Part shown: piece by piece, positions 10,088-35,110 of the stretch
How positions within the stretch are numbered: position 1 is the first letter of the stretch
Layout of the letters: every line of letters begins with the position of its first letter
Assembly (NCBI GenBank): GCA_032718475.1
Contig: JAUCBJ010007687.1
Coordinates: forward strand, 1-64,000
Reading direction: 5' to 3'
Length of the DNA stretch: 64,000 bases
DNA from: Nemertoderma westbladi
Lineage: Eukaryota; Animalia; Xenacoelomorpha
Translations under genes and position numbers: made by a program
Notes under the pieces: generated by a model
Databases searched by the model: none
What the model was told of the DNA's origin: nothing
The model's input: the letters and a program-made list of their open reading frames with translations, nothing else

Positions 10088-10213
10088 TATAGAATTATAT
10101 TCCCTAAATGCCGTGGATTTTCAAAATTTTATTTTATTCGAATTAACTTTGTAAAGATTGCTTTGAGTTCTCATTCGTATTGGTTCTATCTATTATGCAT
10201 CTATCGGTCAGGT

Positions 10214-10300
10214 GGTTCAGTAGCTCAGTTGGTAGAGCGTTGGAAATTATAAGTGTAGTAGGTATCGAGTTCGAATCCTAGTAAGTGCGAATTATTTTTT
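10214..10300 (+). promoter_or_regulatory. tRNA-like Pol III unit (A box, B box, T6 terminator) inside the LTR; second copy at 24832-24918
   Basis: TAGCTCAGTTGGTAGAGC at 10221-10238, GAGTTCGAATCC at 10267-10278, TTTTTT at 10295-10300. Acceptor and anticodon stems pair poorly, so it is not a functional tRNA. Confidence 0.7.
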
Positions 10301-11108
10301 GTGCAGAATTTCAACTCATTTAAATTAACCGCTACAAATTAATTGCATTTGTCTGTACCAATAAGGCTGTAGTTATTTGATTGTAACCAATGTCGTGCAA
10401 GTTATATATTAGCTGGACCAATAAGCTATCTTTAAAACCTTGTTAGAACCCATAGAACAATCGAGAATTTTCTCGATTGATTGCAGCACAAATTTAGTAT
10501 ATAAAGGTGCGATTTCGTTCATTAGTTATCTCAATCTCAATCAATCACTGCAATTTCCATCATTCGCTTTCTGTCTTATTTCAGATTACATTGTTTATTG
10601 TATAATAGTTATTATATGTTTGTAATAAAGTCAGAAATACTAGTCACATCTCTCAGCCTTTCTATCTGTTTTAATATGGTTTCACTACGGTGAACAAACT
10701 CAGGGACAGGATGGCCAGCTAGAGATCGGGCCGCAGCAATGAACGGGAACATCACAGGAATGTAGACGAGAGACAACCCGCAATACCATCTTAGAGTTAT
10801 TCGCCCATCGCCTGAAAGGTTAGACAGCGTTCGATCCTTGCTACCTAAGTGTAAGACCAAAGATCAAAGGTAGACGTAGTGACACGCTGCAAGCCTAAAA
10901 TTACATCATAGGGACTGTACTGTCTTGATTCAGGGAAAACCGCAGTAGACCTTCATATTCCTACGGGGGGGGGAGGAGAGAGAGCAGATACTAGTAAGCA
11001 GATAGGACGTAGGCACACCGGTACAAGGCATACACATTGGTTAGGGTGCAGCAAACTGTACGCTTAACTCTTGCTAAGTACAGGTGTGTGTGCGACTATT
11101 TGCCGTAC

Positions 11109-11365
11109 TAGGATCGGCATGCTGCATTGCAGCTGCATTTTTAAGAATGCTGTGCCGGTTTGTCAACAAAATTGCACCGCCACAACTCCCTATCACCCAT
11201 GACATTTGCTAGATCATCCGCATCTTTAAGGCCAGTGTCCTTTAAGATGCGTCTCAAGAAAGTCATGGGCTGTCCACCATGCTTATTCACTCCATGAGGC
11301 TGCCAAAGTACAAGATTATGCACTGGCTGGTCCTCACGGCGAAAGCAATGTCCTGCAAAGGACTA
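11109..11365 (-). mobile_element. 5'-truncated RTE-like LINE 3' end inserted in the 5' LTR
   Basis: Absent from the 3' LTR, which reads CCGTAC-AACG-GTGTCT. It is the reverse complement of ~35666-35920 and encodes HNLVLWQPHG...LWRCNFVDKPAQHS. Confidence 0.9.
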
Positions 11366-12267
11366 GTGTCTATTACATCAGAACTTGTAGGCTAGAGGGT
11401 TGCTGTGTTTTCACCTGAATTGGGATTGTACCGTTCAGGCGGTAGGGCAGTTTACGCTAGGCGCAAATAAATTGAGGCTATCAGGGATATAATAACATCT
11501 ACCGTGTCCCCGCCAACGCCCTAATAGGAAGTTACCCGGACTACCTGGGTGACTAAAATTCTAGATAGGAGCCAGGATAGCTATTAGTACCCGTACGCCT
11601 ACAGTAGTAAACTAACACATCTCTTCTTAGTATCAGGGACCTGGTACCTAAAATTGCCGAATTCTGGGCGTAGTATTAACCTTATGCCTGAATTTGAGTC
11701 CTGGAAATACGCAAGAGGGGAAGGAACCTTATTATTCGTGAGTATTGGACCTACAAGTTATAAAATTAGAATATTCGTAAAATGCACACCGTACCCAGTA
11801 ATTATATATGTGAAGGAGCAAAACTGTTTTTGACCGATCAGAATTAACACACGCGCGTTAGAAATTATTTACACCTCGAAATATATAAAATTAACTTAGT
11901 CCGTACTGTGCTTTGCCCGCTAGTTAGACATCTCCAAATCTGCTCTATACCTAGCTAGCGTCCCTTTGCCCAACCATATAAATCACACCGCGGCAAAGTA
12001 TACGAGCCCCTTAGTCCGTCAGTGAGTCAGCCTGATTTTAGGATTCGCTGCGCGGGATTTGTTTTATCGAAGTTTGTCTGCTCGTAGACTGTTTTCTGCC
12101 TCACCGGTTAAAAGAGATCGATACTGCAATATATTCGCTTACTTGGGGTTTACTGTTTTGGTGAGAAGGTCGGATTTATGATTTGATTTACAAACTTTAC
12201 AGTAGGATATTGCAGGTATTGTTACCGTCTCTTCCGATAGTAGGAATAGGCGTATCTCTCCAATTTA

Positions 12268-12279
12268 GTAGGAATATGA
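12268..12279 (+). promoter_or_regulatory. Non-tRNA primer-binding site of element 1 (GTAGGAATATGA), complementary to LTR 10953-10964
   Basis: Directly follows the TSD-defined LTR end, has no TGG, and is the exact reverse complement of TCATATTCCTAC. Confidence 0.75.
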
Positions 12280-13110
12280 TTATTTAACATATTTCCTAAT
12301 TTAGTAGGAATATGTTTTACTGAACTACGGTTCGGTAGGACAAAAGTTTTTTGAAAAATTTGTATTTTGAGGTAAAAATTTGTATTTGATTAGCTAAGTG
12401 CTAATTTTTGAAATAAAATTTGATTTGAACCGCGTGTAAAATTTTTTGGAATTGAATACCGGTGTTTAAAAGGGTTTAAATACCATATTGTACCGGTACA
12501 AAAATTTTCGTAAAGTAAAACCTAACTCTTTTGTTTTTTCAGGATTCAGAACTCATTTCTAGGCTGTAACGGGAGCAAGACCGTGTTTAGCAAGTTTGGG
12601 AGATAGATAACTCAACAACTTTGGTTGGGAAAATCGCGTTTCGTCCGCAACGTTAAAAACGGAAAGGTTCACGTTCGGTTTGTATCTGGGAATCTGTTTT
12701 TCTGGAGAATTATTGGAGTGGGTGAGTTCGAAAAGTTGCATAAATAAGTTAGGCATTACCGTATTAGTTAAAATTATTGTGGGTTCCACTGTCTCAAGTA
12801 TTTATGCATTCCGTATGATTTTTTTGTTCATTGCTGAATTAGTCCGTATTATTGTATTTAATTTACCTTTTGATAACGCATATCGTTATCCGATTTATTT
12901 GTTATAAAATTGGCCGCTAGGCTAATTTTATTATATACTTATTCCGTGACATTTATTTGCTGTAAAATTGGCCGTTTAGGCTAATTTTATCCATCTGCTA
13001 TAAAATCGGCCGGTAGGCTAATTTTATAAGACTGTAATTAGTACCGTTTTATACAAATACGGTAAACTCGATACTTTGACACTCACTTCACTTGACTTAC
13101 AACTACCGAA

Positions 13111-13512
13111 ATGAGTGACAAACAAGACTATACGAAGAATACACAAACCGACTATGACTCATGTGACGCGGATAAGTCAGCAGCGGGAGAACAACAGGGG
13201 AAGACTCGCGAGCCTACCGAACCTACACCGTGTGCGTCACCAGTACATCCAACGGGAGTACCGGATGCCGTAGTACGAGGCGACGGCAGGACCGAGGACT
13301 TTCTAACTGTTCCGCAACCTAGATATAGGGAAACGGAATTGGTAAGTTCAGCAGGAAGCACAGAAAGTGTGGTTAGAAGCGTCGGAGGTTACATGGCGCA
13401 TATAACCAGGAGTATTGGAGAAGGCCAACGCATATTAGACGGGTTGACCGCTCCGATGTCTCGATTCGAGTTCTACACCCTCCAGGTTAGAGTAAAGTAT
13501 ATAAGTCCGTAG
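13111..13512 (+). CDS. N-terminal Gag segment of element 1, separated from the main ORF by a -1 frameshift near 13491-13502
   Basis: The frame of ORF 13557 is open back to 13491 (KVYKSVDNLVGLQDLARQRQD-M) and overlaps this ORF. RSVGGYMAHITRSI resembles BEL Gag N-termini. Confidence 0.7.
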   Translation: MSDKQDYTKNTQTDYDSCDADKSAAGEQQGKTREPTEPTPCASPVHPTGVPDAVVRGDGRTEDFLTVPQPRYRETELVSSAGSTESVVRSVGGYMAHITRSIGEGQRILDGLTAPMSRFEFYTLQVRVKYISP

Positions 13513-13556
13513 ATAATTTAGTTGGCTTACAAGATCTAGCTAGACAGAGACAGGAC

Positions 13557-16500
13557 ATGGATACTCAACTTAGAATCCTAGAGAAACTAATGATCACTAG
13601 AGAGAAACTGATTCAGTTTAAGTCGACGATTAGACAGATACAACAGGAACAAGCGGACCAGTTGTTAGGTGAGTCAGTTTCGGACGAATTATTACAACCC
13701 GAGGAAGAACAGGAACTGTACCGACTGGATGGACAATTGAAACACCTGACGGATCACTTGCGCATGTGCGGCGAAGACGTCGGGGATTGGGAAACCGTGC
13801 CGGAGGCTACGAGGGAAACTTCACTCGCACAAATCGAATCGGCACCGGGAATACTAAATCAATCGCTGGTGAGTATTCGTAGCGAAATCTGCGAGGGAAG
13901 TATAGTCACGTCAGAAGTTGCTCGACAACAGCAAGAATTCTGCCGACAACGACGAGAAATGGAGGAACAAGCTCAACTTCTAGTGATGCAGGCAGCAGTA
14001 GAGGAAGAGAAGCTACGCGTTGCGAATATAGCGAGAATCTCTCATCTACAGGAACAAGCTGAATTAGAAGCAGCTGAAGTAGAAAGGTTAGAGGTAGACA
14101 TTGCCCGACAAGCGGCAGCGGCAGCGGCAGAGTCAGAGCGACAAGCGGCAGCGGCAGCGGCAGAGTCAGAGCGACAAGCGGCAGCGGCAGCGGCAGAGTC
14201 AGAGCGACAAGCGGCAGCGGCAGCGGCGGAATTAGAACGAGACAGGTTAGTTTCGGAAGCACGGGCCGAAATGAAAACACGGCAAATAAAAGCTCAATCC
14301 GCCATACGACAAGCAGAATTTGAGGCGCAACAACGACAAACGGAACAACGAGAGAAGACAGCTAAACTTCATTTCGAACTTGAGAAGAAGGCGAGAGAAT
14401 TAGCGAACGCTGAGGAAGATCTGGATCAAAAGGCCCGCGATCGATCGATGAGATCTCGTGACGGACATGATTTGGACCAGTTAGAGGTAAGACATCGCCA
14501 AATTCAGGAACGGAAGAAGGAAGGAAGCGTAGGAGCACCCGGACGGGAACGGCAATTAGTAAAAGACGTGTGTCAACGATTCCCACAGGTAACTCATATG
14601 TTTGCACCGGTTACGACTAAGGAACCTGTTTCGATTGCGGGTAGTAGTGATATTTCTCCTATCCATGGTGCGACGGAACACAGGTTTGTTATTCCGAACG
14701 AGTTTATACCGCCAAGAGCAACGTCGTCGCCTATTCCGAGAGTCAAGGTAAGTAACCCACCGATTACAGATCGTAGTAGTTTATTGACCGGACCTGCGCT
14801 ACTGACGACTAAACAGGTGAGTCCACCTTTGACGCCAAAACCCGTTACGCACTACGATTACCCAATGACGTTTCGACCAACAAGGCCTTTGGATTCAAAT
14901 GCTGTCATTCGCCCACCGTTCAACCAATTTACATCGCAATCTACGACTTCGAGGAAGACTTGTGAGCCTACCGAACAACGGAGAACAGTGGATACGCGAC
15001 CGGTTCAGTTTACATCGCAATCTACGACTTCGAGGAAGACTTGTGAGCCTACCGAACAACGGAGATCAGTGGACGATGTTCCGAAACGAGCCGTTAGAAT
15101 TCGTACGACGCAACGGACGCGAGCACGTCGACCACCATATCCAGATGATAGTACTACTTCGAGCGAATCGGATTACCCGAAACGCGAGGTATTTAGAACA
15201 GGGGCGGCCGATGAATATAAACGCGAGCGTTCAGACAACTCCTTTGCAGACAATCCTCCACAGAATACACCAACACAGAAGGCGTTACAACCAACGGACG
15301 CAATTAGTACACAACAGTTCGCCGACATTCTGCGACCAGTTGTCAATAAGTTGGCTCAGATCGAGGAGCGTCTGGAGGAAGTTCAAACCGACAGTTCGAG
15401 AAATTCCGAATTCGAACACAATAGACACCCGAAGGGACCACAAAGACCGGTACCTTCAAACCCCACATCGTATCAGGGAAAAGCGCCCAGAAGGGAGAAC
15501 ATCAACCAGGTTACCAACCAAGGACGCGAAACTCTGAACGTTGCCGAGGAGATAGCGAAATTCGCAGCCAGACAGGGATTGCCGGTACAACAACCACCGA
15601 AGTTCTCCGGTAGCTCAAAACACTGGCATACCTTCGTAGACTATATTGAATCCCAGATCGCCGTGTGCGCCTTTACGTCACGAGAGAAGTTCAATTACTT
15701 GCTCCAAACGTTGTCAGGAGAACCTAAACGTTTGGCGGAGACTTTCGTTGGTGTACCGGACGCTTTCGAACTAGCGTACGATCGTTTGACTTCGATATAC
15801 GGAGGTACAGTGAGTATGGCCAGGTCAGTAATAGAAGAACTCTGTAAGGGAGGGGCTATCACTAAACCCGTCGACTTACTAAAACTGGCTGACGAGATTA
15901 AGAACGCTATCACTACCTTAAGATCAATTGGACAACTTGATTACGGGAATACACCTACAGTCCTATTAAAGATAATAGGACGACTCCACCATCGACTTCG
16001 TCGGGAGTGGAGGAAGGTCGAATATCAGCGAGAGGAGCGAGGAGGATTCCTGAAATTAGAAGATGTGTACCTTTTAATATCCAGGGAGGCGGTAGTAGAA
16101 ACTCGATCTAACTATACCGACCAGCACATCGTGGCAGAAGGGATCACACTGCCATCCTCCAACCGACAAAAACCCCAGACAACATCCACAAAGACGGCCA
16201 CTTACGCCACACCGACGGAATCAAGACAATTCTCAGACGGTAATAGAGTATCTGCGCCCATTGGAACGAAACAGACGAGACAGCAACTCAGCGCCGACTT
16301 CAACGGATGCCAATACTGCGAACATTTGGGTAAGCGGTATATTGGTCACAAGTTACGAGGTTGTCGACAATTTCGCGAGTTGAACTCAGAAGAACGACGG
16401 CTGCAGATACGGCCACTGGACTCTTGTTGGCGGTGTACGCGACACGGACACGTCCGTAAGGATTGCCCAAATACCGACACTTGTCCATCCTGTGGACGCA

Positions 16501-19500
16501 ACCACGACGGTCTGCTCCACACAGACAGCCACACGCCGACGAAACGCTTCGCCAGGGAACACCCGGAAGCAGCAGCGAGATGTGATGCGGCTTACCGAAA
16601 ACGGGAATCGAAAACGACTCCGACTTTCGTGACCCATATAGAGGATTGCTTTTCAGAACAATCCGGATCATCGGACGAAGAATCAGAAGACGACGAATAT
16701 TCAAATGGAGACGAACAACCGTCAATCGCGCTCCTGACCACTGACCAACTGAAGGGATTCAGTGTAATCCCGATTAAAGTTACTGGCACAAAAGGGAGTA
16801 AGAGGATTTACGCGATTCTAGACTCAGCCTCATCTCACAGTTACGTAGATGAAAAGATAGCTGACGTCGTAACAGATCTTAGACAAGGTAAGCACGTCAG
16901 TTATACAGTAAGTAGTATGCACGGCCAGCGTGCAATACCAGTGACACGAGTTAAGTTGGACTTAGACTCTCTTCTTCCAAAATCGCAGCACAGCGAGAGG
17001 GAGAGGTCTTTGTTGCCCTTTAGAGATTTAACCTTTGCGGCCACGAAGGACTTTAGTAACCTACTAGGTCCAGTGCCGGAACAATCTCTGGAGGACCGTA
17101 AGTATTTCAGACACCTTGGTGTACCCGAATGTCCCGTCAATTATAGATCGGTAGCAATGCTGATCGGGACGGACCAATTCAACCTACATCAGGTGTGGGA
17201 AACCAGACCATCGGCAGTTGTAGCAGGAAACGCATACGCCTGCAGAACGCCGATAGGGTGGTATACTCGAGCGCCTGTGCGCACACTGGACGTAAGTGAC
17301 GAGGAAGACGACGTACAGAGTACATGTAGTTTATTGACTACAAACTCAATTCATTCCTTTTCACACGACGTGAACCATACTACGCTACAGTCGACAAAAC
17401 ATCACAGACGTGTAACTAGTATGATAAGTCACAAGGAGCAGCTAACCCACAAGGTGAGTTTAGAAATTGGGGGGAAGATGAGTCAGCTAGAGATTCCATC
17501 GACGACAGATGATAGGCTTGCGAGTCTACCTACCCCAATAACTTCAACAGTGCCCATCGATATCGACGATGACGCGTTGAAAATTCATCAGTTGGAACAA
17601 GCCGCCTTGGACAAAGAATTAACGGAGAAGACTATCAGGTGGTTAGAACAAGATACAGCTGAACCTGGTAGCTACGACCCTTGTATGTCGGAACAGGAGA
17701 AACAATCTCTAAAGATCATGGAGGATACTATCCGACAGACGGAGGACGGACATTACGAGGTGGGGATGTTATGGCGTAGCCAAAGTCCTAAACTTATAAA
17801 TAACTACCCACTGGCTTTAAGACGTCTACACTCAATCCGACAACGTCTATTAAAGGACGAGAAAGCCCATCTGCAGTATAACACTCAGATGGAGACGTAT
17901 TTGACGAAGGGATACGCTATCCGAATGACTAACCCGGAGCGAGTGACAGACCAGACGTACTACTTGCCACATCACTATGTGAGACATCCCGACAAACCAG
18001 ATAAAGTACGCGTAGTCAATGACTGTGCGGCTCTGTTTGAGGGAATGTCCCTCAATAGTGAATTGATGGATGGACCGAACATGAATAACTATCTTATGGG
18101 GGTGATTATGCGCTTCCGTCAGCGTCAAGTAGCCTTTACTTGCGACGTAGAAGCGATGTTTCACCAAGTGAAAGCGTTAGAGCGAGACAGAGACAGTTTG
18201 CGGTTTCTCTGGTATCCGGAAGGGGACTTAAGTCTACCACCAGCGACTTACCAAATGCAAGTTCGCGTTTTCGGTGCCAGAGACAGCCCGAATTGTACGA
18301 TGTACGCCTTGAAGCAAGCCGCTAGAGATCAGAAACATCTGTATGACCCAGAGATAGTTAGAATTGTAGAACGTGACTTTTACGTTGATGACGGTTTACA
18401 AAGTTGTGACACAGTAGAACGTGCTACAACAGTAGCACATCAATTACGGGACTGCTTGGCGGGCGGAGGTTTTAACCTCACCAAATTCGCCTCAAACAGT
18501 GCCGAATTAGTTGACTCATTCGGAACTACTGAGCGTGGAGGTGGTGATATAGACCTAGAGTTCGAACCACTACCGACGACTAAGGTGTTGGGGCTCTTTT
18601 GGGACCCAAACACAGACAACTTTCGAGTGAAGGTGAGACTGGACAGTCAAGGAGACACACTGACCAAGAGATCATGCTTGTCAAAGTTGAGCCGATTGTT
18701 CGATCCGTTAGGATTCATCAGTCCAGTAATACTGCAAGCTCGCATTTATATGCGCAGTATATGGAAGGATGGACTAACGTGGGACGAGCCGATCTCATCA
18801 GATCAAGTGGACTTATGGAAGACCTGGGAGGCGGAATTGTCTTCGTTAGAGGATTATTCCATACCCAGGGTTTACTTTCCATTACAGAGTACATTTCCTG
18901 ACAACTTGGAACTACACTGTTTTTCTGACGCCAGTGACAACGGTTTTGGTGTGGCAGCGTATTTGCGCAGACAAGTAGAATCAGACGAGTTCGATGTTTC
19001 GCTCATTACTTCCAAGGCTAAGACCATGCCTACTAAGTATATGACGACACCACGAGCCGAGCTACAAGCCGCGACCCTGTCAACCACCATCGTGAACCTC
19101 ATACAGACAGAACTACAGTCGAGTTTACAGATATTTTATTGGACTGACGCGACGTTAGTTTTATTTTACATAAACAACGACACACTCGAATTCAAGACAT
19201 TCGTAGCTAACCGTCGCGCGGAAATTCTAGACCGTTCGATAAAAGAGGATTGGCGACATTGTCCCGGACCACAAAACCCAGCTGATATTGCGTCGCGAGG
19301 AATGATGCCTGAGGAATTCTGTAAACCGGAGAACAAAGAGTTTTGGCAACACGGACCCCAGTTCTTGCAGAAATCGACACAAGATTGGCCTCCGTTATAC
19401 GACAACAAGTCCAACACCATTCCAAAGGACGCCGAAATCAAGAAACCAAAAAAGGGGAAGACAAAGAAAAAGACAACGGCGACAAAACTCAAGAAAAAAC

Positions 19501-21749
19501 CGAAGGCGAAATGGAAAGATATAACTTCAAAGGTCAAGAGAGGAAGACTTGCGAGCCTTTCTACACCAGACATATCGCCAGACGGTCAACCAGACACGTT
19601 ACTAGACAGTCAACCAGACATTTTGCCAGACATATCACAAAATGTTCCACCAGACGTTAGTAACGCACTGACAAACAGTAAAGCCGCAGTTTCCCTATTG
19701 GAGCGGCCTTCTATTGACAAACAACCAGATACGTTACCAGACGTATCGCCAGACACACTACTAGACAGTCGACTAGACACTAGTAATGTATTGACTAACA
19801 ATAAAGCCGCAGTTTCCCTATTGGAGCGGCCTTGTATTGACAAACTACCAATTTTGACACACTTGAGCAACCATAAGCACGGTGAAACCTCATGTATTAC
19901 AGATGTGGGTAGTACCTACGCTAATGTAAATACAGGTGTTACTTTGCGCTCAAGAGACATACCGAACTTGCAACCTATGTCGAAACCTGGGATTAATGTC
20001 GGCAGGAAAATAAGTTTACCGAAACCTGCTGACCCCATAGAGTTCAAACCACCATTAGCGATCGACTTACAAAGTACCGACAATCAAGGTAAGAAGACAA
20101 AGAAGGACAAATTACTTGTAGACCCGGACGGATCAACAGTCAACAAGGGAATACTTACCGGCGGACCCGTGGGCCCTTCTAGTAATTCAAAACCTTCCAA
20201 GTTCTCCATTGACTTACCTGATGACGTCACAAATACTTACGTCGACCGTATTGTAAACTTAACAGATTCTTGGTCAAACGCTTGCCGAAAATTAGCGTGG
20301 ATTGTACGTTTTGTACAATACGTTAAAGGCAAACGTGACTTTACACGTCGACTTACATTGGCTGAGATTGAAAGGTGTGAGATTAAATTAATTCGCCATT
20401 ACCAACTGCGATATTTCGCGCGCGAATTCACATCTATACATCAAGGTCAACCAATCAAGTCGTCACCGATACTGAGTTGGAGTCCGATAATTTATAATGG
20501 CTTAATTTGTCATAAATCTCGGCTTCAAAACATTGACTTTAACACAAACTTTAGGTACCCAATAATAATACCGCAACATCACGAACTACAACGTGCAATG
20601 ATACTGGACGCACATTTACATCTGAAACACGCTGGAAGACACCACTGTCTTTCCTACTTACGTACTAGATTTGTATTAATTAGACCCAGTAAAGCATTAA
20701 GTTCAGTGACACGTACGTGTATTATTTGTAAAAAGGTACATTCTAGAATAGGTACCCAAGAAATGAGTGAACTACCACAAGCACGACTTCAAGCATTCAG
20801 ACCACCTTTTACAGAGACTGGAATTGATTGCTTTGGTCCCATACATACTAAACGTGGACGTATACTAGTAAAACGCTGGGGACTGATTTTCACATGTATG
20901 TCCAGTAGGGCAGTTCACATTGAACGTGTGATGGATCTTTCCACCAACGCGTTTATACTAGCACTGCGGCGATTTATCGCTAGACGCGGACTAGTGAAAT
21001 GCTTGTACTCAGACCAAGGGACAAACTTCGTTGGTGCTCGGAATGAGATCGCTAGAGCCTTTAAGAAATTAGATCACGATCAAATCTCGAACGAACTACA
21101 ACCTCACAAGATTGTTTGGAAGTTTAATCCTCCAGATAGTCCTTGGAGAGGCGGAGTCTGGGAGAGATTGATTAGATCTATAAAGACAGCCATGGCAAAA
21201 GTCATTCCAGTAAACCACATATTAACAGACGACCAACTGACAACATTGTTTGTTGAAATCGAGGCAATACTAAATACTAGACCAATAGTATTAGTACCCG
21301 ATGACAAACAATCTCAGTTCGCTTTAACACCAGCACACCTGCTTATGCAGGCACCGACCACATTGACGCCGATTTCCATTCCAATGGAAAGCGATAGTTA
21401 CGGTAGAAAAGCGTGGAAAATCACGCAACTACTGGCTAACAAATTCTGGGAAATATGGCAAAACCATTATTTGCCCTCTATTTCTGCCAGAACAACATGG
21501 TACAATAACACCCGTGCATTAAAGCCGGGAGATCACGTGCTGTTGGCAGAAGTGAATCTGAAAAGACGCTTCTGGATAACAGGTGTCATTTTAGCCACAC
21601 ATCCATCTATGGATGGAGTGACAAGAACTGTGACGGTACGGACAATTGACGGTCGTACAGTAGACAGACCGACTCAACGTCTCGTACTCCTTGAAGAGAC
21701 TCGTAACGAGTCTGGAGATTACAAATCTCCACCTAATACTAGTAAATAA
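13557..21749 (+). CDS. BEL/Pao Gag-Pol polyprotein (2730 aa)
   Basis: Capsid-like PKFSG...EKFNYLLQTLSGEP; three Zn knuckles (CQYC..H..C, CWRC..GH...C, CPSC..HDGLLH); protease AILDSAS; RT YYLPHH...RVVND...DVEAMFHQ...FYVDD; RNase H LHCFSDAS...PRAELQAA...WTDA...NPADIASRG; integrase H..HAG...CIIC, GIDCFG, SDQGTNF, WERLIRSIK. Confidence 0.97.
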   Translation: MDTQLRILEKLMITREKLIQFKSTIRQIQQEQADQLLGESVSDELLQPEEEQELYRLDGQLKHLTDHLRMCGEDVGDWETVPEATRETSLAQIESAPGILNQSLVSIRSEICEGSIVTSEVARQQQEFCRQRREMEEQAQLLVMQAAVEEEKLRVANIARISHLQEQAELEAAEVERLEVDIARQAAAAAAESERQAAAAAAESERQAAAAAAESERQAAAAAAELERDRLVSEARAEMKTRQIKAQSAIRQAEFEAQQRQTEQREKTAKLHFELEKKARELANAEEDLDQKARDRSMRSRDGHDLDQLEVRHRQIQERKKEGSVGAPGRERQLVKDVCQRFPQVTHMFAPVTTKEPVSIAGSSDISPIHGATEHRFVIPNEFIPPRATSSPIPRVKVSNPPITDRSSLLTGPALLTTKQVSPPLTPKPVTHYDYPMTFRPTRPLDSNAVIRPPFNQFTSQSTTSRKTCEPTEQRRTVDTRPVQFTSQSTTSRKTCEPTEQRRSVDDVPKRAVRIRTTQRTRARRPPYPDDSTTSSESDYPKREVFRTGAADEYKRERSDNSFADNPPQNTPTQKALQPTDAISTQQFADILRPVVNKLAQIEERLEEVQTDSSRNSEFEHNRHPKGPQRPVPSNPTSYQGKAPRRENINQVTNQGRETLNVAEEIAKFAARQGLPVQQPPKFSGSSKHWHTFVDYIESQIAVCAFTSREKFNYLLQTLSGEPKRLAETFVGVPDAFELAYDRLTSIYGGTVSMARSVIEELCKGGAITKPVDLLKLADEIKNAITTLRSIGQLDYGNTPTVLLKIIGRLHHRLRREWRKVEYQREERGGFLKLEDVYLLISREAVVETRSNYTDQHIVAEGITLPSSNRQKPQTTSTKTATYATPTESRQFSDGNRVSAPIGTKQTRQQLSADFNGCQYCEHLGKRYIGHKLRGCRQFRELNSEERRLQIRPLDSCWRCTRHGHVRKDCPNTDTCPSCGRNHDGLLHTDSHTPTKRFAREHPEAAARCDAAYRKRESKTTPTFVTHIEDCFSEQSGSSDEESEDDEYSNGDEQPSIALLTTDQLKGFSVIPIKVTGTKGSKRIYAILDSASSHSYVDEKIADVVTDLRQGKHVSYTVSSMHGQRAIPVTRVKLDLDSLLPKSQHSERERSLLPFRDLTFAATKDFSNLLGPVPEQSLEDRKYFRHLGVPECPVNYRSVAMLIGTDQFNLHQVWETRPSAVVAGNAYACRTPIGWYTRAPVRTLDVSDEEDDVQSTCSLLTTNSIHSFSHDVNHTTLQSTKHHRRVTSMISHKEQLTHKVSLEIGGKMSQLEIPSTTDDRLASLPTPITSTVPIDIDDDALKIHQLEQAALDKELTEKTIRWLEQDTAEPGSYDPCMSEQEKQSLKIMEDTIRQTEDGHYEVGMLWRSQSPKLINNYPLALRRLHSIRQRLLKDEKAHLQYNTQMETYLTKGYAIRMTNPERVTDQTYYLPHHYVRHPDKPDKVRVVNDCAALFEGMSLNSELMDGPNMNNYLMGVIMRFRQRQVAFTCDVEAMFHQVKALERDRDSLRFLWYPEGDLSLPPATYQMQVRVFGARDSPNCTMYALKQAARDQKHLYDPEIVRIVERDFYVDDGLQSCDTVERATTVAHQLRDCLAGGGFNLTKFASNSAELVDSFGTTERGGGDIDLEFEPLPTTKVLGLFWDPNTDNFRVKVRLDSQGDTLTKRSCLSKLSRLFDPLGFISPVILQARIYMRSIWKDGLTWDEPISSDQVDLWKTWEAELSSLEDYSIPRVYFPLQSTFPDNLELHCFSDASDNGFGVAAYLRRQVESDEFDVSLITSKAKTMPTKYMTTPRAELQAATLSTTIVNLIQTELQSSLQIFYWTDATLVLFYINNDTLEFKTFVANRRAEILDRSIKEDWRHCPGPQNPADIASRGMMPEEFCKPENKEFWQHGPQFLQKSTQDWPPLYDNKSNTIPKDAEIKKPKKGKTKKKTTATKLKKKPKAKWKDITSKVKRGRLASLSTPDISPDGQPDTLLDSQPDILPDISQNVPPDVSNALTNSKAAVSLLERPSIDKQPDTLPDVSPDTLLDSRLDTSNVLTNNKAAVSLLERPCIDKLPILTHLSNHKHGETSCITDVGSTYANVNTGVTLRSRDIPNLQPMSKPGINVGRKISLPKPADPIEFKPPLAIDLQSTDNQGKKTKKDKLLVDPDGSTVNKGILTGGPVGPSSNSKPSKFSIDLPDDVTNTYVDRIVNLTDSWSNACRKLAWIVRFVQYVKGKRDFTRRLTLAEIERCEIKLIRHYQLRYFAREFTSIHQGQPIKSSPILSWSPIIYNGLICHKSRLQNIDFNTNFRYPIIIPQHHELQRAMILDAHLHLKHAGRHHCLSYLRTRFVLIRPSKALSSVTRTCIICKKVHSRIGTQEMSELPQARLQAFRPPFTETGIDCFGPIHTKRGRILVKRWGLIFTCMSSRAVHIERVMDLSTNAFILALRRFIARRGLVKCLYSDQGTNFVGARNEIARAFKKLDHDQISNELQPHKIVWKFNPPDSPWRGGVWERLIRSIKTAMAKVIPVNHILTDDQLTTLFVEIEAILNTRPIVLVPDDKQSQFALTPAHLLMQAPTTLTPISIPMESDSYGRKAWKITQLLANKFWEIWQNHYLPSISARTTWYNNTRALKPGDHVLLAEVNLKRRFWITGVILATHPSMDGVTRTVTVRTIDGRTVDRPTQRLVLLEETRNESGDYKSPPNTSK
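14106..14228 (+). repeat. 33-bp coding tandem repeat (RQAAAAAAESE, ~3.7 copies) in the Gag coiled-coil region
   Basis: CGACAAGCGGCAGCGGCAGCGGCAGAGTCAGAG is repeated in tandem. Confidence 0.9.
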
Positions 21750-22407
21750 TTAGGAGTTTACAAATAGATTTCCACGTACCTGTACACCGTAGTAAGGACA
21801 GCGGTAGAATTCCATTGTCTTTATATGTGAACATTGAGGGTAGTACCCTTATGTGTCACATAGGAGCGGGATTTGTAGGTATAAGAAATGGAATTCTACT
21901 TGGAACTCACAATATTGAGACATTTTCGAAATTTTAGACAATCCATTTGGATTTGAAAAATTTTTAAAATTTTCTCCAGTGAATAGATTTCAGGGTACAG
22001 TCGGGTGGAACTTAAAATTAGAGAAACAAGAGAGGAAGACTTGCGAGCCTTTCTTAAAATTTTTAATTAAATTTTACACGGTCTTGTTTCAATAAGTTAC
22101 GTCAAAATAGACTCCCCTATATTTATTACTAATTCTTGATTGCTTATTTTCTGATAATAGTTTGGGATCAAAAGGTGAGTATTTTAGACTCACGGCCAGT
22201 TTAGCCCAAATTCGTTTTTATTTCGGCAAAAATTTTAGATAAGAAGCAGCGTGTCATTAAAGAAACCCTAGATCTTAGGCTATGGGTAGGAGGTTAGAGC
22301 GTTGTCGAGCCCAAAGGGCAGACGAAACTCTCACGTCTCCTCACAACTAACTACAAACTCTGTTGTATTCCCTCTAGTAGTAATGATTATGTAACTACAC
22401 CCTAATT

Positions 22408-24110
22408 ATGGAGAAAGGGATACAAGGAGAGCCGAGATGGGGATATGATATCCAAGAGGAGGCAGCAGCGCCATTCGAAAGATTTGGAGCCAAGGATTAT
22501 ACTATATTTGGTATAAAGGAATTATCAGAAAGTACAGCGAAGCTCGCAAAGACAGCAATGCCTTTACTCGAGCAGGATTTAGCATATTTCGAGACGTGTA
22601 TCTTCGCTGTGCGGGATCTCTTATCGAAAGACCATCTATGTTTACATTGTTACCCTATGAAGGAGAACGTATTGTGGAAATTACGGATGAATCACGGCAG
22701 ACGCGCGCACCTATCGGTCACCTCGGTGATGATTTCAACGTAACTACTACGATCGCCGACGATCCTTTAGAGGAACTTCTTGAGATAGAAAGGAACCTCC
22801 CGAAGAAATCTCAGACGGAGATTCGACAACTTGAAGCAACAGATGCTATAGTTTGCATACAACCTTCAGAAACCTACCAACCCATAGACCCAGATGATTA
22901 CGATTATAGTGTGGGAGGAAGCGCTCGACCGATTGGAGATCTTATATACGAACGAGTGTGGTACCCTGCTAATACGATGTGTAGTAAATGTGGCGTCGCT
23001 GGACATCATATGGCAAAGTGCAGTGGAAAGCACATTACTACGACTCAGCTAATCTGTGGATGGTGTGGGGATCAAGGGTCTCATACCTTTTATACTTGCT
23101 GGAGATTTATGGCTCAGTGTACTTACTGCAATATAAAGGGACATCGAGCATCTGAATGCCAACTGAGAGATATACCTTATGAACACGAATCTGTAAAACT
23201 TGTGAGGAAGTTATTTGATGAGTGGGAAGATTTAGCCGATGAACATGTATCAGCACAAAGAAGACGGTTTCCGATGAGAGCGCATCTCGGATTTTGGGCG
23301 GTAAATCCTCAAACGATGATGTCGGAAGGATATATCTCCGCTATGCCCCAATATGACGAACTTATCGAGGTTGTTGATATTTTGCCCCACGACAGCGGAT
23401 TCCGAGTGGTGCGCGAGTATCTGTTACAGATTCACCCGGATAACAAAAACACGTGGAATTTTCAGAAAGTCGTAAATCGTATCACGTATGGTGAATTTGA
23501 TCGTTTCCGAACCGAAAAGCGGAATAAAGGAGCTTGGTTAACCGTCGCATGGGCGTACCGAGCCGCGTTTTACCACAAACGTATACGAGCGAGCGTATTC
23601 GAGGAAGAAGAGGTCCTAGAGGCGACGAATATACCAGCCACTCCGGTTGCGCCGTCTGCACGTCACCCTCGGGAGGACGGGCAGGGTAGGATCATACGGG
23701 TCCAGAAGGTGGGCCAACAATTAAAGAAAATTATTAATGTAGAAGAACGCAAGGGAGTTGAGCCGACCATTCGAGTTACTCGGGATACGGTATCACTTCC
23801 AAGAGAACCAGTAGGAGGATCGGGACATACACCAGCTGATCAACAGGGGGCGCAAGCTACTCTTGGGTCTGCGTCGTCCGCTTCTCACGCGTTCCCAGAC
23901 GTTCTACCAACTGTAGCGACAACTGATCGGTCACGAGGAATTGGTCGAGGTTTTGGGATGCCAAATAGACGAATTTGCGAGGAAATAGTTGCACCGTCTC
24001 TCAACGTCCCAAGTAAACCAGTGACTCGCCCCATTAGTCCCATATCGCGAGCAAAGTCACCTGTGCGCAGTTTTCGAGGACGCGGCAGGGCTCGATCAAC
24101 TAAGCGATAA
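22408..24110 (+). CDS. Accessory 3' ORF2 of element 1: triple zinc-knuckle protein with a basic RG tail; 22408-22743 and 22596-24110 are probably joined by a -1 frameshift near 22620
   Basis: CSKCGVAGHHMAKC, CGWCGDQGSHTFYTC and CTYCNIKGHRASEC; C-terminus RGRGRARSTKR. It lies between pol and the PPT and shows no signal peptide or transmembrane segment, so it is not env-like. Confidence 0.8.
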
Positions 24111-24705
24111 AAGGGAGGGCAAGGGTGGACGGAAGACTCGTGGGCCTTTCTTATGATTTGTGATTTATTTTGAATTATATGTTTTATATTTAGAAAACTT
24201 ATGCAATTTGTATTGTTCCGAATTTATGAAATTTAGAAAGTTTAGAAGGAACTTATATTTGAAAGATTTATGTTTCATATTTGAGATGCAAAGGTTTATA
24301 TTATTCTAAACTTATGCAGTTTATATCTATATTTAGTAAGACTACCCAAAAGAGAGTTTATATTTGTAAGAATTTATATTTATATTTGTAATTATTCCAA
24401 ACTTATGCAATCTACATTTAGGTACGAAAGTATTTGTAATTACTTGAATTTATGCAATATCTGAGATGCAATAGATTTATATTGGTGAATTTAATTTAGA
24501 TTTATATTGTACTTACTTGTAAAGCCTTAAATACGTAAAGTTTAAATTTGTAATTATTTTGTATCGAATCATTACGTAGAAAGGAAGTATTGTTTGAAAT
24601 TTAATTGTAAATATGTAAGTACGCCCTAAGTATTCTATAGTTTGATTGATTATTGGTGAAAACCGTATATTTTATGGACAATAATATCCTGTTTTCATGG
24701 AGCGG

Positions 24706-27594
24706 TATAGAATTATATTCCCTAAATGCCGTGGATTTTCAAAATTTTATTTTATTCGAATTAACTTTGTAAAGATTGCTTTGAGTTCTCATTCGTATTG
24801 GTTCTATCTATTATGCATCTATCGGTCAGGTGGTTCAGTAGCTCAGTTGGTAGAGCGTTGGAAATTATAAGTGTAGTAGGTATCGAGTTCGAATCCTAGT
24901 AAGTGCGAATTATTTTTTGTGCAGAATTTCAACTCATTTAAATTAACCGCTACAAATTAATTGCATTTGTCTGTACCAATAAGGCTGTAGTTATTTGATT
25001 GTAACCAATGTCGTGCAAGTTATATATTAGCTGGACCAATAAGCTATCTTTAAAACCTTGTTAGAACCCATAGAACAATCGAGAATTTTCTCGATTGATT
25101 GCAGCACAAATTTAGTATATAAAGGTGCGATTTCGTTCATTAGTTATCTCAATCTCAATCAATCACTGCAATTTCCATCATTCGCTTTCTGTCTTATTTC
25201 AGATTACATTGTTTATTGTATAATAGTTATTATATGTTTGTAATAAAGTCAGAAATACTAGTCACATCTCTCAGCCTTTCTATCTGTTTTAATATGGTTT
25301 CACTACGGTGAACAAACTCAGGGACAGGATGGCCAGCTAGAGATCGGGCCGCAGCAATGAACGGGAACATCACGGGAATGTAGACGAGAGACAACCCGCA
25401 ATACCATCTTAGAGTTATTCGCCCATCGCCTGAAAGGTTAGACAGCGTTCGATCCTTGCTACCTAAGTGTAAGACCAAAGATCAAAGGTAGACGTAGTGA
25501 CACGCTGCAAGCCTAAAATTACATCATAGGGACTGTACTGTCTTGATTCAGGGAAAACCGCAGTAGACCTTCATATTCCTACGGGGGGGGGAGGAGAGAG
25601 AGCAGATACTAGTAAGCAGATAGGACGTAGGCACACCGGTACAAGGCATACACATTGGTTAGGGTGCAGCAAACTGTACGCTTAACTCTTGCTAAGTACA
25701 GGTGTGTGTGCGACTATTTGCCGTACAACGGTGTCTATTACATCAGAACTTGTAGGCTAGAGGGTTGCTGTGTTTTCACCTGAATTGGGATTGTACCGTT
25801 CAGGCGGTAGGGCAGTTTACGCTAGGCGCAAATAAATTGAGGCTATCAGGGATATAATAACATCTACCGTGTCCCCGCCAACGCCCTAATAGGAAGTTAC
25901 CCGGACTACCTGGGTGACTAAAATTCTAGATAGGAGCCAGGATAGCTATTAGTACCCGTACGCCTACAGTAGTAAACTAACACATCTCTTCTTAGTATCA
26001 GGGACCTGGTACCTAAAATTGCCGAATTCTGGGCGTAGTATTAACCTTATGCCTGAATTTGAGTCCTGGAAATACGCAAGAGGGGAAGGAACCTTATTAT
26101 TCGTGAGTATTGGACCTACAAGTTATAAACGAGACTTAGAGTCAATGACCCCCCCCCACCTCTCCACAAACTCACATTAGTTATATTTAATTGTTTTCCT
26201 TTTATAGTCGCACATCAATATTTATTTTTATCGCATTTTATCTTATTTTACTTATCTACTTATTTTTCACTTGATCTACTTATTTTTATGTAACTTACAG
26301 TATAATCTCTTACCAATCGTTCGTATTTTTAAATAGACCCAAATGGTGCAACTGTTATTTCTTAAATAATCCAATTCATATGCAATATTTTATTTTAATT
26401 AAATCCATCAGTTCTACATACCAAACTGTTTCTATACAACGATTTTATCGAATATTTTAATTTTATTTTATATTTTATTTTAACCCTTAAAGCTTAAACT
26501 GTGTACTTATTTTCTCATCGTGTAGTGTTAGCTAATCCATGTAAATTTAAGTGTTCAAATGTCTTGATCTATTTTACATACCGTACTGTTTTTATAGCTA
26601 TGGATTATCTGATATTTTAAATTAATTTTATATTTTATTTTAACCCTTAAACTATCGATATTAGCCCTAACCGATATACTTGTATCCGATTTTATCGACT
26701 GATATGTAACTTTCGGTGTATACTCGTGATACTATATAGACTGTCATTTTATTGAATTTGTTTAGTAATTCTAATGTATATTTGTAATTTGCTGTGTATA
26801 CTCGTGATTTTATAGACGTCACTTCAACCCTTTAGCAAGCAAGACATTTTATTAGTAACCATTTTTATAAGAACACTATTTTAATTTAACTGCGTCCTTT
26901 TATGTTTCAATTGTTTTATATATGTTTTTGTCATTGTTTCGTAAACATGGTCGGTATTGGTCGCAGTACTTAATTACTTACCGGTACTGTTACAATTACT
27001 TTCAGTTGGACTTTCTTTTGGTGTGTACGGGTTCCATAAGCATTAGCTTTCTTATACCCAAACTATTAAACATTAAACATTAAACATTAAAATTAGAATA
27101 TTCGTAAAATGCACACCGTACCCAGTAATTATATATGTGAAGGAGCAAAACTGTTTTTGACCGATCAGAATTAACACACGCGCGTTAGAAATTATTTACA
27201 CCTCGAAATATATAAAATTAACTTAGTCCGTACTGTGCTTTGCCCGCTAGTTAGACATCTCCAAATCTGCTCTATACCTAGCTAGCGTCCCTTTGCCCAA
27301 CCATATAAATCACACCGCGGCAAAGTATACGAGCCCCTTAGTCCGTCAGTGAGTCAGCCTGATTTTAGGATTCGCTGCGCGGGATTTGTTTTATCGAAGT
27401 TTGTCTGCTCGTAGACTGTTTTCTGCCTCACCGGTTAAAAGAGATCGATACTGCAATATATTCGCTTACTTGGGGTTTACTGTTTTGGTGAGAAGGTCGG
27501 ATTTATGATTTGATTTACAAACTTTACAGTAGGATATTGCAGGTATTGTTACCGTCTCTTCCGATAGTAGGAATAGGCGTATCTCTCCAATTTA
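24706..27594 (+). repeat. 3' LTR of element 1, containing a ~960-bp insertion
   Basis: Starts TATAGAATTATATTCCC after GGAGCGG and ends CTCTCCAATTTA before the GTGGT TSD and the resumed satellite. Confidence 0.95.
26130..27087 (+). mobile_element. Non-LTR retroelement 3' end (L2/CR1-group-like) inserted in the 3' LTR
   Basis: Absent from the 5' LTR and AT-rich. Ends in a stem-loop GGGTTCCATAAG...CTTATACCC and a (CATTAAA)n tail. TAAA is duplicated at 26126-26129 and 27088-27091. Confidence 0.7.
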
Positions 27595-30409
27595 GTGGTT
27601 TATAAATTCGCCCGTGTTTGTTCTTTGTTTTGTGGTTTATAAATTCGCCCGTGTTTGTTCTTTGTTGTGTGGTTGATAAATTCGCCCGTGTTTGTTCTTT
27701 GTTTTGTGGTTTATAAATTCGCCCGTGTTTGTTCTTTGTTGTGTGGTTGATAAATTCGCCCGTGTTTGTTCTTTGTTGTGTGGTTTATAAATTCGCCCGT
27801 GTTTGTTCTTTGTTTTGTGGTTTATAAATTCGCCCGTGTTTGTTCTTTGTTTTGTGGTTTATAAATTCGCCCGTGTTTGTTCTTTGTTGTGTGGTTTATA
27901 AATTCGCCCGTGTTTGTTCTTTGTTGTGTGGTTTATAAATTCGCCCGTGTTTGTTCTTTGTTTTGTGGTTGATAAATTCGCCCGTGTTTGTTCTTTGTTG
28001 TGTGGTTTATAAATTCGCCCGTATTTGTTCTTTGTTTTGTGGTTGATAAATTCGCCCGTGTTTGTTCTTTGTTGTGTGGTTTATAAATTCGCCCGTGTTT
28101 GTTCTTTGTTTTGTGGTTTATAAATTCGCCCGTGTTTGTTCTTTGTTGTGTGGTTTATAAATTCGCCTGTGTTTGTTCTTTGTTGTGTGGTTTATAAATT
28201 CGCCCGTATTTGTTCTTTGTTTTGTGGTTTATAAATTCGCTCGTGTTTGTTCTTTGTTTTGTGGTTTATAAATTCGCCCGTGTTTGTTCTTTGTTGTGTG
28301 GTTTATAAATTCGCCCGTGTTTGTTCTTTGTTTTGTGGTTTATAAATTCGCCCGTGTTTGTTCTTTGTTTTGTGGTTTATAAATTCGCCCGTGTTTATTC
28401 TTTGTTTTGTGGTTTATAAATTCGCCCGTGTTTGTTCTTTGTTGTGTGGTTTATAAATTCGCCCGTGTTTGTTCTTTGTTTTGTGGTTGATAAATTCGCC
28501 CGTGGTTGTTCTTTGTTGTGTGGTTGATAAATTCGCCCGTGTTTATTCTTTGTTTTGTGGTTTATAAATTCGCCCGTGTTTGTTCTTTGTTTTGTGGTTT
28601 ATAAATTCTCCCGTGTTTGTTCTTTGTTGTGTGGTTAATAAATTCGCCCGTGTTTGTTCTTTGTTTTGTGGTTTATAAATTCGCCCGTGTTTGTTCTTTG
28701 TTGTGTGGTTTATAAATTCGCCCGTGTTTGTTCTTTGTTGTGTGGTTTATAAATTCGCCCGTGTTTGTTTTTTGTCTTGTGGTTTATAAATTCGCCAGTG
28801 TTTGTTCTTTGTTTTGTAGTTGATAAATTCGCCCGTGTTTGTTCTTTGTTGTGTGGTTTATAAATTCGCCCGTGTTTGTTCTTTGTTGTGTGGTTTATAA
28901 ATTCGCCCGTGTTTGTTCTTTGTTGTGTGGTTTATAAATTCGCCCGTGTTTGTTCTTTGTTGTGTGGTTTATAAATTCGCCCGTGTTTGTTCTTTGTTGT
29001 GTGGTTTATAAATTCGCCCGTGTTTGTTCTTTGTTTTGTGGTTTATAAATTCGCCCGTGTTTGTTCTTTGTTGTGTGGTTTATAAATTCGCCCGTGTTTG
29101 TTCTTTGTTGTGTGGTTTATAAATTCGCCCGTGTTTGTTCTTTGTTTTGTGGTTTATAAATTCGCCCGTGTTTGTTCTTTGTTGTGTGGTTTATAAATTC
29201 GCCCGTGTTTGTTCTTTGTTGTGTGGTTTATAAATTCGCCCGTGTTTGTTCTTTGTTGTGTGGTTTATAAATTCGCCCGTGTTTGTTCTTTGTTGTGTGG
29301 TTTATAAATTCGCCCGTGTTTGTTCTTTGTTGTGTGGTTTATAAATTCGCCCGTGTTTGTTCTTTGTTGTGTGGTTTATAAATTCGCCCGTGTTTGTTTT
29401 TTGTCTTGTGGTTTATAAATTCGCCAGTGTTTGTTCTTTGTTTTGTAGTTGATAAATTCGCCCGTGTTTGTTCTTTGTTGTGTGGTTTATAAATTCGCCC
29501 GTGTTTGTTCTTTGTTGTGTGGTTGATAAATTCGCCCGTGTTTATTCTTTGTTTTGTGGTTTATAAATTCGCCCGTGTTTGTTCTTTGTTTTGTGGTTTA
29601 TAAATTCTCCCGTGTTTGTTCTTTGTTGTGTGGTTAATAAATTCGCCCGTGTTTGTTCTTTGTTTTGTGGTTTATAAATTCGCCCGTGTTTGTTCTTTGT
29701 TGTGTGGTTTATAAATTCGCCCGTGTTTGTTCTTTGTTGTGTGGTTTATAAATTCGCCCGTGTTTGTTTTTTGTCTTGTGGTTTATAAATTCGCCAGTGT
29801 TTGTTCTTTGTTTTGTAGTTGATAAATTCGCCCGTGTTTGTTCTTTGTTGTGTGGTTTATAAATTCGCCCGTGTTTGTTCTTTGTTGTGTGGTTTATAAA
29901 TTCGCCCGTGTTTGTTCTTTGTTGTGTGGTTTATAAATTCGCCCGTGTTTGTTCTTTGTTTTGTGGTTGATAAATTCGCCCGTGGTTGTTCTTTGTTGTG
30001 TGGTTGATAAATTCGCCCGTGTTTATTCTTTGTTTTGTGGTTTATAAATTCGCCCGTGTTTGTTCTTTGTTTTGTGGTTTATAAATTCTCCCGTGTTTGT
30101 TCTTTGTTGTGTGGTTAATAAATTCGCCCGTGTTTGTTCTTTGTTTTGTGGTTTATAAATTCGCCCGTGTTTGTTCTTTGTTTTGTGGTTTATAAATTCG
30201 CCCGTGTTTGTTCTTTGTTTTGTGGTTTATAAATTCGCCCGTGTTTGTTCTTTGTTGTGTGGTTTGTAAATTCGCCCGTGTTTGTTCTTTGTTTTGTGTT
30301 TTATAAATTCGCCCGTGTTTGTTCTTTGTTTTGTGGTTTGTAAATTCGCCCGTGTTTGTTCTTTGTTGTGTGGTTTTTAAATTCGCCCGTGTTTGTTCTT
30401 TGTTGTGTG
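27595..30409. repeat. 37-bp satellite, right arm (~76 units)
   Basis: Same unit as the left arm, resuming in register after the TSD. Confidence 0.98.
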
Positions 30410-34439: not shown

Positions 34440-35110
34440 TGTTCGCGCTTTTAGACCTTTAGCAGTTTAACCTGCCAAATTTAGGTGTCTTCTAGGTTAT
34501 AAATCGACTTTAGCCTATAACGAGAGAAAGCCGCCCCAATATTAGATTATTACAACAACATATCCATTGGGTAAGAAAGTGGAGGAGAGCCAGCCCGTCT
34601 CTTAATTTTTTACTTTATATTACGCGATAAATTTTCACTCATCTCGTCATGAACCCAACATGTATGTAACCTTTTGTTAAATTTGTTGGCTATGCGTTTG
34701 CGGTTGTTTGGGCGGAGTGTGGTAGGCCTACACTTTTCACAATTAAATATTTTGGTTGTGAAATGTTACAGGGCATAGCGATCTGAGATATTTCATTTAT
34801 ATTTTATTATGAGAGGAAGAAGAACATACAACGTTATTTACTATGTAACAAAATAATTGTTTTCGGGTTTAACTTGGAAGCCTCCCCAAATAGTTGATAT
34901 ACAATTATATTTAAAATTATTTCCATGGTCATGGTTATTCACCCGTCTTTAGTTAGAAATTTGTTTGCATGAAAGACAGTTTAGTTTAGTTTTTACTGAT
35001 TTATTATCTCTTATCTGACTGGATAGGATAAGATAAGATAAGGATAGGATAAATGGAAGCAAAGTGTGACAGTAACAAATATTTCCCCGTCACCCTAGCA
35101 TGTCTTAAGT

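Follow-up and report, generated by a model that had tools for sequence, protein, structure and literature searches.

A probable accessory gene with three CCHC knuckles in the env position of an atypical BEL/Pao retrotransposon, and its candidate RNA ligand

In the window, the whole stretch of 64,000 nucleotides that was analyzed, an open reading frame with three zinc knuckles (ORF2) lies downstream of pol in an LTR retrotransposon. Is it a maintained gene of the element, and what could a protein of this kind do in the position of env? The carrier element spans 10088-27594 (17.5 kb in all), and its insertion target was a 37-bp satellite, with a 5-bp target-site duplication (TSD) on both sides. 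Its framework consists of the following features.

10083..10087, plus strand: left 5-bp TSD, within the 37-bp satellite
10088..12267, plus strand: 5′ LTR, with about 1.93 kb in common with the 3′ LTR and a 256-bp LINE tail at 11105-11360
13126..13512, plus strand: N-terminal gag frame, which overlaps the long frame but is read in a different phase
13491..21749, plus strand: gag-pol, 2,752 codons open, with PR, RT, RNase H and IN in this order and the RT motif YVDD at 18381
24699..24705, plus strand: purine-rich tract of 7 nt, 5′ of the 3′ LTR
24706..27594, plus strand: 3′ LTR, with an additional 958-bp segment at about 26130-27087
27595..27599, plus strand: right 5-bp TSD

The 37-bp satellite is homogeneous around the element, at 1257-10096 (239 units) and 27595-30409 (76 units). 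Each LTR has one private insertion, and the pair differs at 4 of 1,926 aligned nucleotides, all four close to an insertion edge; because the differences are so few, the copy is considered young. Under the 5-bp TSD reading, both LTR copies have the ends TA..TA, not TG..CA (10088, 12267, 24706 and 27594). A second BEL/Pao element in the window has an identical 7-nt purine tract ahead of its LTR, and the LTR of this neighboring family starts with TG after the shared tract. Truncated LINE tails (11105-11360 and 49935-50125) lie in or near the LTRs of both BEL/Pao families.

The order PR-RT-RNase H-IN and three Pao-type domains scoring over the Pfam cut-off (PF05380, PF03564 and PF18701) are those of a BEL/Pao pol, and the direct-repeat LTRs with a TSD and the polypurine tract, short at 7 nt, are likewise as in BEL/Pao elements. 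The RT/RNase H part gave 479 protein matches at E ≤1e-50; the best 120 of these all carry PF05380, and the named ones among the matches listed come from sea urchins, cnidarians, molluscs, amphioxus and a priapulid. The listed matches are 38-44% identical, and no close relative was found in the protein collection searched. According to the ICTV profile, BEL/Pao elements contain gag and pol, in some cases also an env-like gene; their LTRs measure 0.2-1.2 kb and their total length is 4.2-10 kb (PMC8742986). Both size ranges are exceeded here by a shared LTR of 1.93 kb and a total of 17.5 kb. Judged by its Pol, the element is classed in the BEL/Pao lineage, not as a typical Semotivirus. Gag has its own knuckle at 16425, inside gag-pol. 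At 13491-13512, the gag start frame and the gag-pol frame show the same offset as the frames in ORF2; the offset in gag may be a lesion or a family trait.

The ORF2 region comprises two overlapping frames and a block that spans their junction.

22408..22743, plus strand: upstream frame ORF2a, 111 aa, with its ATG in strong context and third-position variation at 22461-22512
22449..24110, plus strand: ORF2 knuckle frame, with an acidic linker, three CCHC knuckles (22980-23159), a predicted helical region and a disordered basic tail
22513..22672, plus strand: block without listed variation, across which constraint shifts between the frames; a candidate recoding or splicing signal

The knuckle frame is open for 553 codons from stop to stop on the sense strand, begins 700 nt past the pol stop and occupies the env slot between pol and the 3′ LTR, in agreement with the first-pass annotation, which had placed a sense ORF of about 500-570 aa there. 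The three CCHC knuckles that it had noticed besides those of Gag were recovered at 22980 (CX2CX4HX4C), 23055 (CX2CX5HX4C) and 23118 (CX2CX4HX4C), all inside 60 residues, and none of 20,000 shuffled ORF2 proteins had two or more knuckles. Pfam zf-CCHC detects only the third (E = 0.0038, below the curated cut-off). The earlier start at 22408 had to be revised: that ATG belongs to the different, overlapping 111-aa frame, and the first ATG of the knuckle frame is at 22641, giving 489 aa. The tail had been called Arg/Gly-rich; Arg is indeed abundant (20% of the last 64 aa), whereas Gly is not (9%), and with 30% Pro+Ser+Thr and four RG pairs the tail is better described as Arg/Pro/Ser-rich. Basic clusters in ORF2 are all short. 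Residues of about 241-390 are predicted with low confidence to be helical, and single-sequence structure models (pLDDT 35 and 39) were too low to use. The absence of membrane features was upheld, the best 19-residue hydropathy reaching 0.78 in the knuckle frame and 0.94 in the upstream frame; ORF2 contains no membrane segment, neither the TM anchor nor the signal-like hydrophobic stretch of env-like proteins, and no fusogen homology in Pfam, PDB sequences or representative proteins. RNA binding by CCHC knuckles is established in general, and ORF2 is likely to bind nucleic acid.

Five public runs contain the stretch, four of them from one organism in three studies. Contigs aligned to 21700-24700 numbered 3,347 in run X1, 1,167 in X2, 239 in X4 and 14 in X5, and the run that matches best could be the sample from which the window itself derives. 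The abundance of the family is very high: in X2, single contigs reach a depth of 10,304 next to others at about 15-30, although contig depth is not copy number. The element is an atypical, young, many-copy member of the BEL/Pao lineage. Variants in sister copies were counted in the best-supported 40 of 107 rows, so that the remaining rows could change the counts, which do not constitute a formal dN/dS; among these 40, 29 lie within 22408-24110 and 27 from 22641 on. Third codon positions account for 23 of these 27 listed variants. Synonymous changes number 21, where random transitions would be expected to give 32% (p = 1.7e-6, best 40 of 107 rows). The six non-synonymous ones fall at aa 95-97, 155, 480 and 490, and all 14 listed variants in aa 174-440 are synonymous. 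None of the best 12 of 17 indel rows lies inside 22408-24110, all being in the two flanks. Deletions of parts of ORF2 are seen in joints of depth 14-81, plus one of 491, while the main form reaches about 10^4, and in X1 and X2 the pol end, spacer and ORF2 are covered by contigs of similar summed depth. ORF2 is under purifying selection in sister copies. Because this selection is accompanied by an absence of listed coding indels, ORF2 is no nested or decaying fragment. It is very probably a real, constrained accessory gene, which bears out the first proposal of an accessory, non-env, element-encoded ORF under constraint; the outcomes named at that time as speaking against it, namely a nested fragment or an ORF absent or unconstrained in sister copies, were looked for and neither appeared.

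No homologue of ORF2 was found by word search among proteins of near or shorter lengths, or in viral contigs, metagenome contigs and PHROGs. Among 1.84 billion representatives it has two matches (E 1.5e-7 and 3e-4), a Gag-like coffee protein and a Copia Gag-Pol, both on the knuckles. PDB sequences gave nothing under E 0.89, and in an Atlas feature search the leads for whole ORF2 all scored <0.9, with no usable match for aa 238-392. The region of about 150 residues after the knuckles is constrained, is predicted at low confidence to be helical, and has no match. ORF2 differs from the element's own Gag in knuckle spacing, and no alignment between them was obtained (best E 1.1). Judged by these searches, ORF2 is an orphan beyond generic Gag knuckles in the collections covered.

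The second BEL/Pao element has a post-pol ORF of about 380 codons (36196-37325, minus strand), interrupted by a stop and by a change of frame; it lacks knuckles, and none of its Pfam matches exceeds the cut-off. Homology between this ORF and ORF2 was considered and rejected, the best piece reaching p 0.011-0.11 among 27 tests, which is not significant; one piece has a weak, non-significant likeness to ORF2a. Elsewhere in the window, a 393-codon open frame at 31498-32679 (minus strand) contains Cys/Lys-rich repeats and a basic cluster near its end, an uninterrupted open frame at 489-962 presumably resembles pterin-4a-carbinolamine dehydratase, and 35109-35921 holds the 3′ part of a LINE reverse transcriptase, which we take to be RTE-like.

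A possible ligand for the knuckles is a 14-nt motif core, AGRCT-YGYG-RGYCT, forming a short stem with a YGYG loop, of which the element has seven sense-strand copies.

13202..13215, plus strand: motif copy 1, in gag
14956..15050, plus strand: motif copies 2 and 3 (14956 and 15037), one local duplication
17514..17527, plus strand: motif copy 4, with a central A.C mismatch that becomes a G.U pair and the loop kept on the sense strand
19545..19558, plus strand: motif copy 5, in the RNase H-integrase linker
22037..22050, plus strand: motif copy 6, between pol and ORF2
24134..24147, plus strand: motif copy 7, just past the ORF2 stop

Contig joints flagged a repeat at 22034 and 24131, the pattern derived from it found an independent third copy at 19542, and a profile and mismatch search then added those at 13202, 14956, 15037 and 17514. 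With at most one mismatch, seven matches were obtained against 0.04 expected and in 0 of 100 shuffles; this search used a slightly narrower pattern than the core and is circular where the copies themselves contributed to the pattern. The motif also emerges from an unbiased k-mer count of ORF2's element, which yielded no dispersed repeat in the two copies of the other BEL/Pao family; the link between motif and ORF2 compares one element with one other family. The motif copies are confined to the internal region of the element. Some sit in coding stretches that look like linkers, in two codon phases, and others in non-coding DNA; each of the seven folds on the sense strand in an identical register, with weak stability (-0.4 to -4.2 kcal/mol). 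Copies 5 and 6 have a longer identity in common. A DNA-level site is also possible, since the motif is nearly palindromic. Joints from 24430-24474 to 22034 have depths of up to 9,835 (X2), which suggests that many members of the family contain one more motif copy in their 3′ UTR. Variant 24143 hits a purine position of copy 7 at which both letters are tolerated.

In retroelements, a downstream ORF can be expressed from spliced RNA, and the full-length RNA must evade splicing. Signals that would permit such a splice are predicted in the leader.

12543..12721, plus strand: candidate leader exon, with predicted acceptor 12542 and donor 12722

Acceptor 12542, one of two candidates put forward previously, is the most pyrimidine-rich in the two regions scanned (13 of 14 positions), whereas the other, the AG at 22237-8, failed the scan; further predicted acceptors are 21979 and 22377/22380, the latter just before ATG 22408. 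Run X5, presumed to be RNA, showed no splice joint among its 14 low-depth contigs, a result that speaks neither for nor against splicing. The spacer contains a possible 64-nt intron with a GTGAGT donor (22175-22238), a stable hairpin (22270-22350, z -2.17) and three upstream ATGs before ORF2.

From these features we infer a series of steps, each of which goes beyond the sequence evidence. Leader donor 12722 would be spliced to an acceptor before 22408, yielding a subgenomic mRNA, and a frameshift or splice within 22513-22672 would join the upstream and knuckle frames. The soluble three-knuckle product would bind zinc and the YGYG-loop hairpins of genomic RNA, and this binding would license the genomic RNA to remain unspliced and exit the nucleus, as CERV does for Cer1. 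Because five of the seven motif copies lie in gag-pol, which the proposed splice removes, they would mark full-length RNA, a role played in HIV by the Rev response element. Knuckles bind exposed guanines of tetraloops in the HIV-1 and RSV NC complexes, as described in the available part of PMC7599994, and CERV, a protein of 517 aa that was formerly read as env, is made from spliced RNA and has a Cys loop required for export, according to the available part of PMC10309623. Given the leader splice signals, the five motif copies in the putative intron, knuckle-tetraloop binding and the CERV precedent, we prefer the reading that ORF2 is an export or splice-escape regulator acting through the YGYG hairpins, like CERV or Rev but without sequence kinship, and give it a probability of about 0.4. 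Among the three functions first offered (chaperone for primer annealing, Rev-like export factor, silencing suppressor), the sequence features suggest that the Rev-like one gains most, from the leader splice signals and the seven hairpin motifs. Against it, Gag has its own knuckles and could equally read the hairpins, which are weak and near-palindromic and whose pattern was derived from the copies themselves, and ORF2 has only short basic clusters. No likeness of ORF2 to CERV or Rev in sequence or fold was found in the libraries searched, with structure models at pLDDT 35 and 39.

A doubtful but quite conceivable alternative is that ORF2 serves as a nucleocapsid-like chaperone or packaging cofactor, the hairpins being dispersed packaging signals read by Gag or ORF2. 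Such a protein may help the RNA to fold, for example into a self-priming duplex that replaces the tRNA primer, and the primer site, which is not tRNA-like and has an exact complement in the LTR, favors this view.

12268..12279, plus strand: primer-binding-site position, not starting with TGG
10953..10964, plus strand: candidate self-primer in the LTR, a 12-nt exact complement of the primer-site position

The ICTV profile gives BEL/Pao elements an 18-nt primer-binding site for tRNA-Arg or tRNA-Gly (PMC8742986); no such site, and none of TGG type, was found after the 5′ LTR. Self-priming is recognized where 10 nt or more of the 5′ LTR can pair with a stretch that starts 0-5 nt past the LTR (available part of PMC6317226), and here the complement is 12 nt long, at offset 0 and in register with the LTR end. 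On this pattern, the element may be a candidate self-priming BEL/Pao element of the Tf1/Sushi type; half-tRNA priming may also apply. In Tf1/Sushi-type self-priming the primer is the 5′ end of the transcript, and a TATA/initiator/AATAAA-like set at about 10500-10624 (recognized partly by eye) would place the transcript start about 430 nt upstream of the self-primer. Near-copies of the primer site lie at 12240 and 12304, with a local hairpin (z -1.81). An A- and B-box-like stretch was seen by eye at 10225-10280 in the LTR, and searches of the LTR with ARAGORN and Rfam for a tRNA-like stretch were negative. A self-priming BEL/Pao element was not found in a literature search, an absence made weak by limits of coverage and name spelling. 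The chaperone or packaging role also draws on the Gag-like nature of the only two representative matches of ORF2 and on the use of NC tetraloop recognition in packaging (available part of PMC7599994). It is weakened by the knuckles that Gag already has, by the constraint on about 400 residues outside the ORF2 knuckles, and by the lack of an evident way into particles for a separately expressed protein.

A different alternative, compatible with any function, concerns the architecture of the locus: two separate overlapping genes, the 111-aa ORF2a and a 489-aa knuckle protein from ATG 22641. A second alignment (22390-22720, runs X1-X4, 1% threshold) gave 18 rows at 16 sites, with no indel at 1% or above across the four runs. 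In 22461-22512, 10 of the 12 variable sites occupy third codon positions as read in the upstream frame (p 5e-4), 22513-22672 (160 nt) and 22408-22460 contain no listed variants, and from 22673 on, third codon positions in the knuckle frame account for 3 of 4 variable sites. The beginning of the upstream frame is coding, its end is not. Because constraint passes between the frames in sister copies, the frame offset belongs to the family and does not represent damage to a single copy; because constraint moves across a 160-nt block without listed variation, a frameshift or splice probably connects the two parts of the protein, and a single joined protein of at most about 567 aa is probably the simplest reading. 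The gap test for this block (p 5e-5) overstates, since sites cluster and divergent copies drop out of the alignment at 22538-22557. Slippery heptamers near the frame overlap all have one mismatch, and RNA structure is not above shuffles (z +0.11, and +0.40 for the downstream fold). GT..AG pairs able to bridge the frames occur, but none has a GTRAG donor and none passes the acceptor scan. A minor variant (22550-22669, depth 491, X2) is 99 nt shorter, a multiple of three, with most of the block missing; if functional, it speaks against a switch signal inside the block. Two genes are conceivable because both frames are open across 295 nt, for which chance gives about 0.001-0.002 under a codon-recoding null; the lack of significant structure for a frameshift points the same way, and dual coding would account for the invariant block. 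However, 6 of 7 variants at 22673-22739 in a wider variant table are non-synonymous in the ORF2a frame, indicating that its end is unconstrained, and ATG 22641 stands in weak context behind five ATGs. We consider two genes unlikely.

Also unlikely is that ORF2 counters host silencing or RNA surveillance, either by shielding transcripts or by mimicking multi-knuckle adaptors of the CNBP/Air2 type. The great abundance of the family (X2 contig depth 10,304) would fit, as would the fungal CCHC proteins, some with an AIR2-like knuckle, returned by the feature search with scores of 0.76-0.87; however, scores <0.9 are leads only, the AIR2-like Pfam model has no match, no solved host knuckle protein matches at E up to 10, and the motif is left unexplained. 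That ORF2 represents passive cargo, a LINE ORF1 or gag fragment that was nested or captured, is very improbable and largely refuted, since its Gag-like knuckles and a 22-nt direct repeat (86%) on both sides (22388-22409 and 24612-24633) are outweighed by purifying selection, the absence of listed coding indels, the rarity of deleting joints, the lack of likeness to the element's own Gag and of any capsid or RRM family match in Pfam, and a search around ORF2 in which no TSD, poly(A) tail or LTR of its own was seen. An ancient capture that later took on a new role may nevertheless lie behind ORF2.

Among BEL/Pao elements, the env-like ORFs of Roo, Tas and the mosquito Chuviridae-like group share the Pol lineage and the third-gene position with ORF2, but encode membrane fusogens, whereas ORF2 has no hydrophobic segment (PMC8742986 and the available part of PMC13524379). 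De la Chaux and Wagner mention env as the sole extra BEL/Pao gene, as far as the available main text goes (PMC3118150). It is known that accessory ORFs specific to one family can occupy the interval from pol to the 3′ LTR, often without homologues (PMC5408684, PMC7264820, PMC6317226), and further extra post-pol ORFs are reported in PMC6431247, PMC13524379 and PMC11952523, all in their available parts. The rotifer ORF3s and plant extra ORFs are of esterase, exonuclease, coiled-coil, membrane or unknown types, and in the available parts of these reports knuckles are mentioned in gag and pol only, whereas ORF2 has them post-pol (PMC5408684, PMC7264820, PMC6317226). A literature search found no BEL/Pao element with a post-pol CCHC ORF, a weak absence given thin coverage of subscription journals and Repbase and the spelling variants of BEL/Pao. 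The ICTV profile calls BEL/Pao replication poorly understood (PMC8742986). ORF2 also shows that the env slot of these elements can hold soluble proteins; the neighboring family has a different, knuckle-free ORF there. It is improbable that a recoded three-knuckle protein, seven hairpins, tRNA-free priming and TA..TA ends form one independently arisen regulatory circuit; if true, a Rev-like system and self-priming would each have originated independently in a lineage in which neither was found described.

For the preferred reading, ORF2 as an export or splice-escape regulator, three known systems offer comparison. Retroviral NC with psi tetraloops has the knuckle-tetraloop recognition proposed for ORF2, but NC is part of Gag. 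HIV Rev/RRE resembles the proposed system in having a cis signal inside the intron of a spliced RNA, whereas the candidate signal of ORF2 is dispersed; to our knowledge, Rev has no knuckles. The third system, Cer1, is of the Ty3/gypsy type. Nuclear exit of intron-bearing retrotransposon RNA is settled for few non-retroviral elements, and ORF2 and its motif offer a candidate protein and a 14-nt candidate ligand. The role of CERV is demonstrated, whereas that of ORF2 is proposed by analogy, with no homology detected; the two also differ in build, with a possible C4 finger and exons shared with gag in CERV (available part of PMC10309623) against three CCHC knuckles and a separate upstream frame in ORF2. 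CERV is, like ORF2, a non-env ORF of about 500 aa lying 3′ of pol, with a Cys-rich putative zinc element and an element-specific sequence, and the spliced expression that we propose for ORF2 is shown for CERV (PMC10309623).
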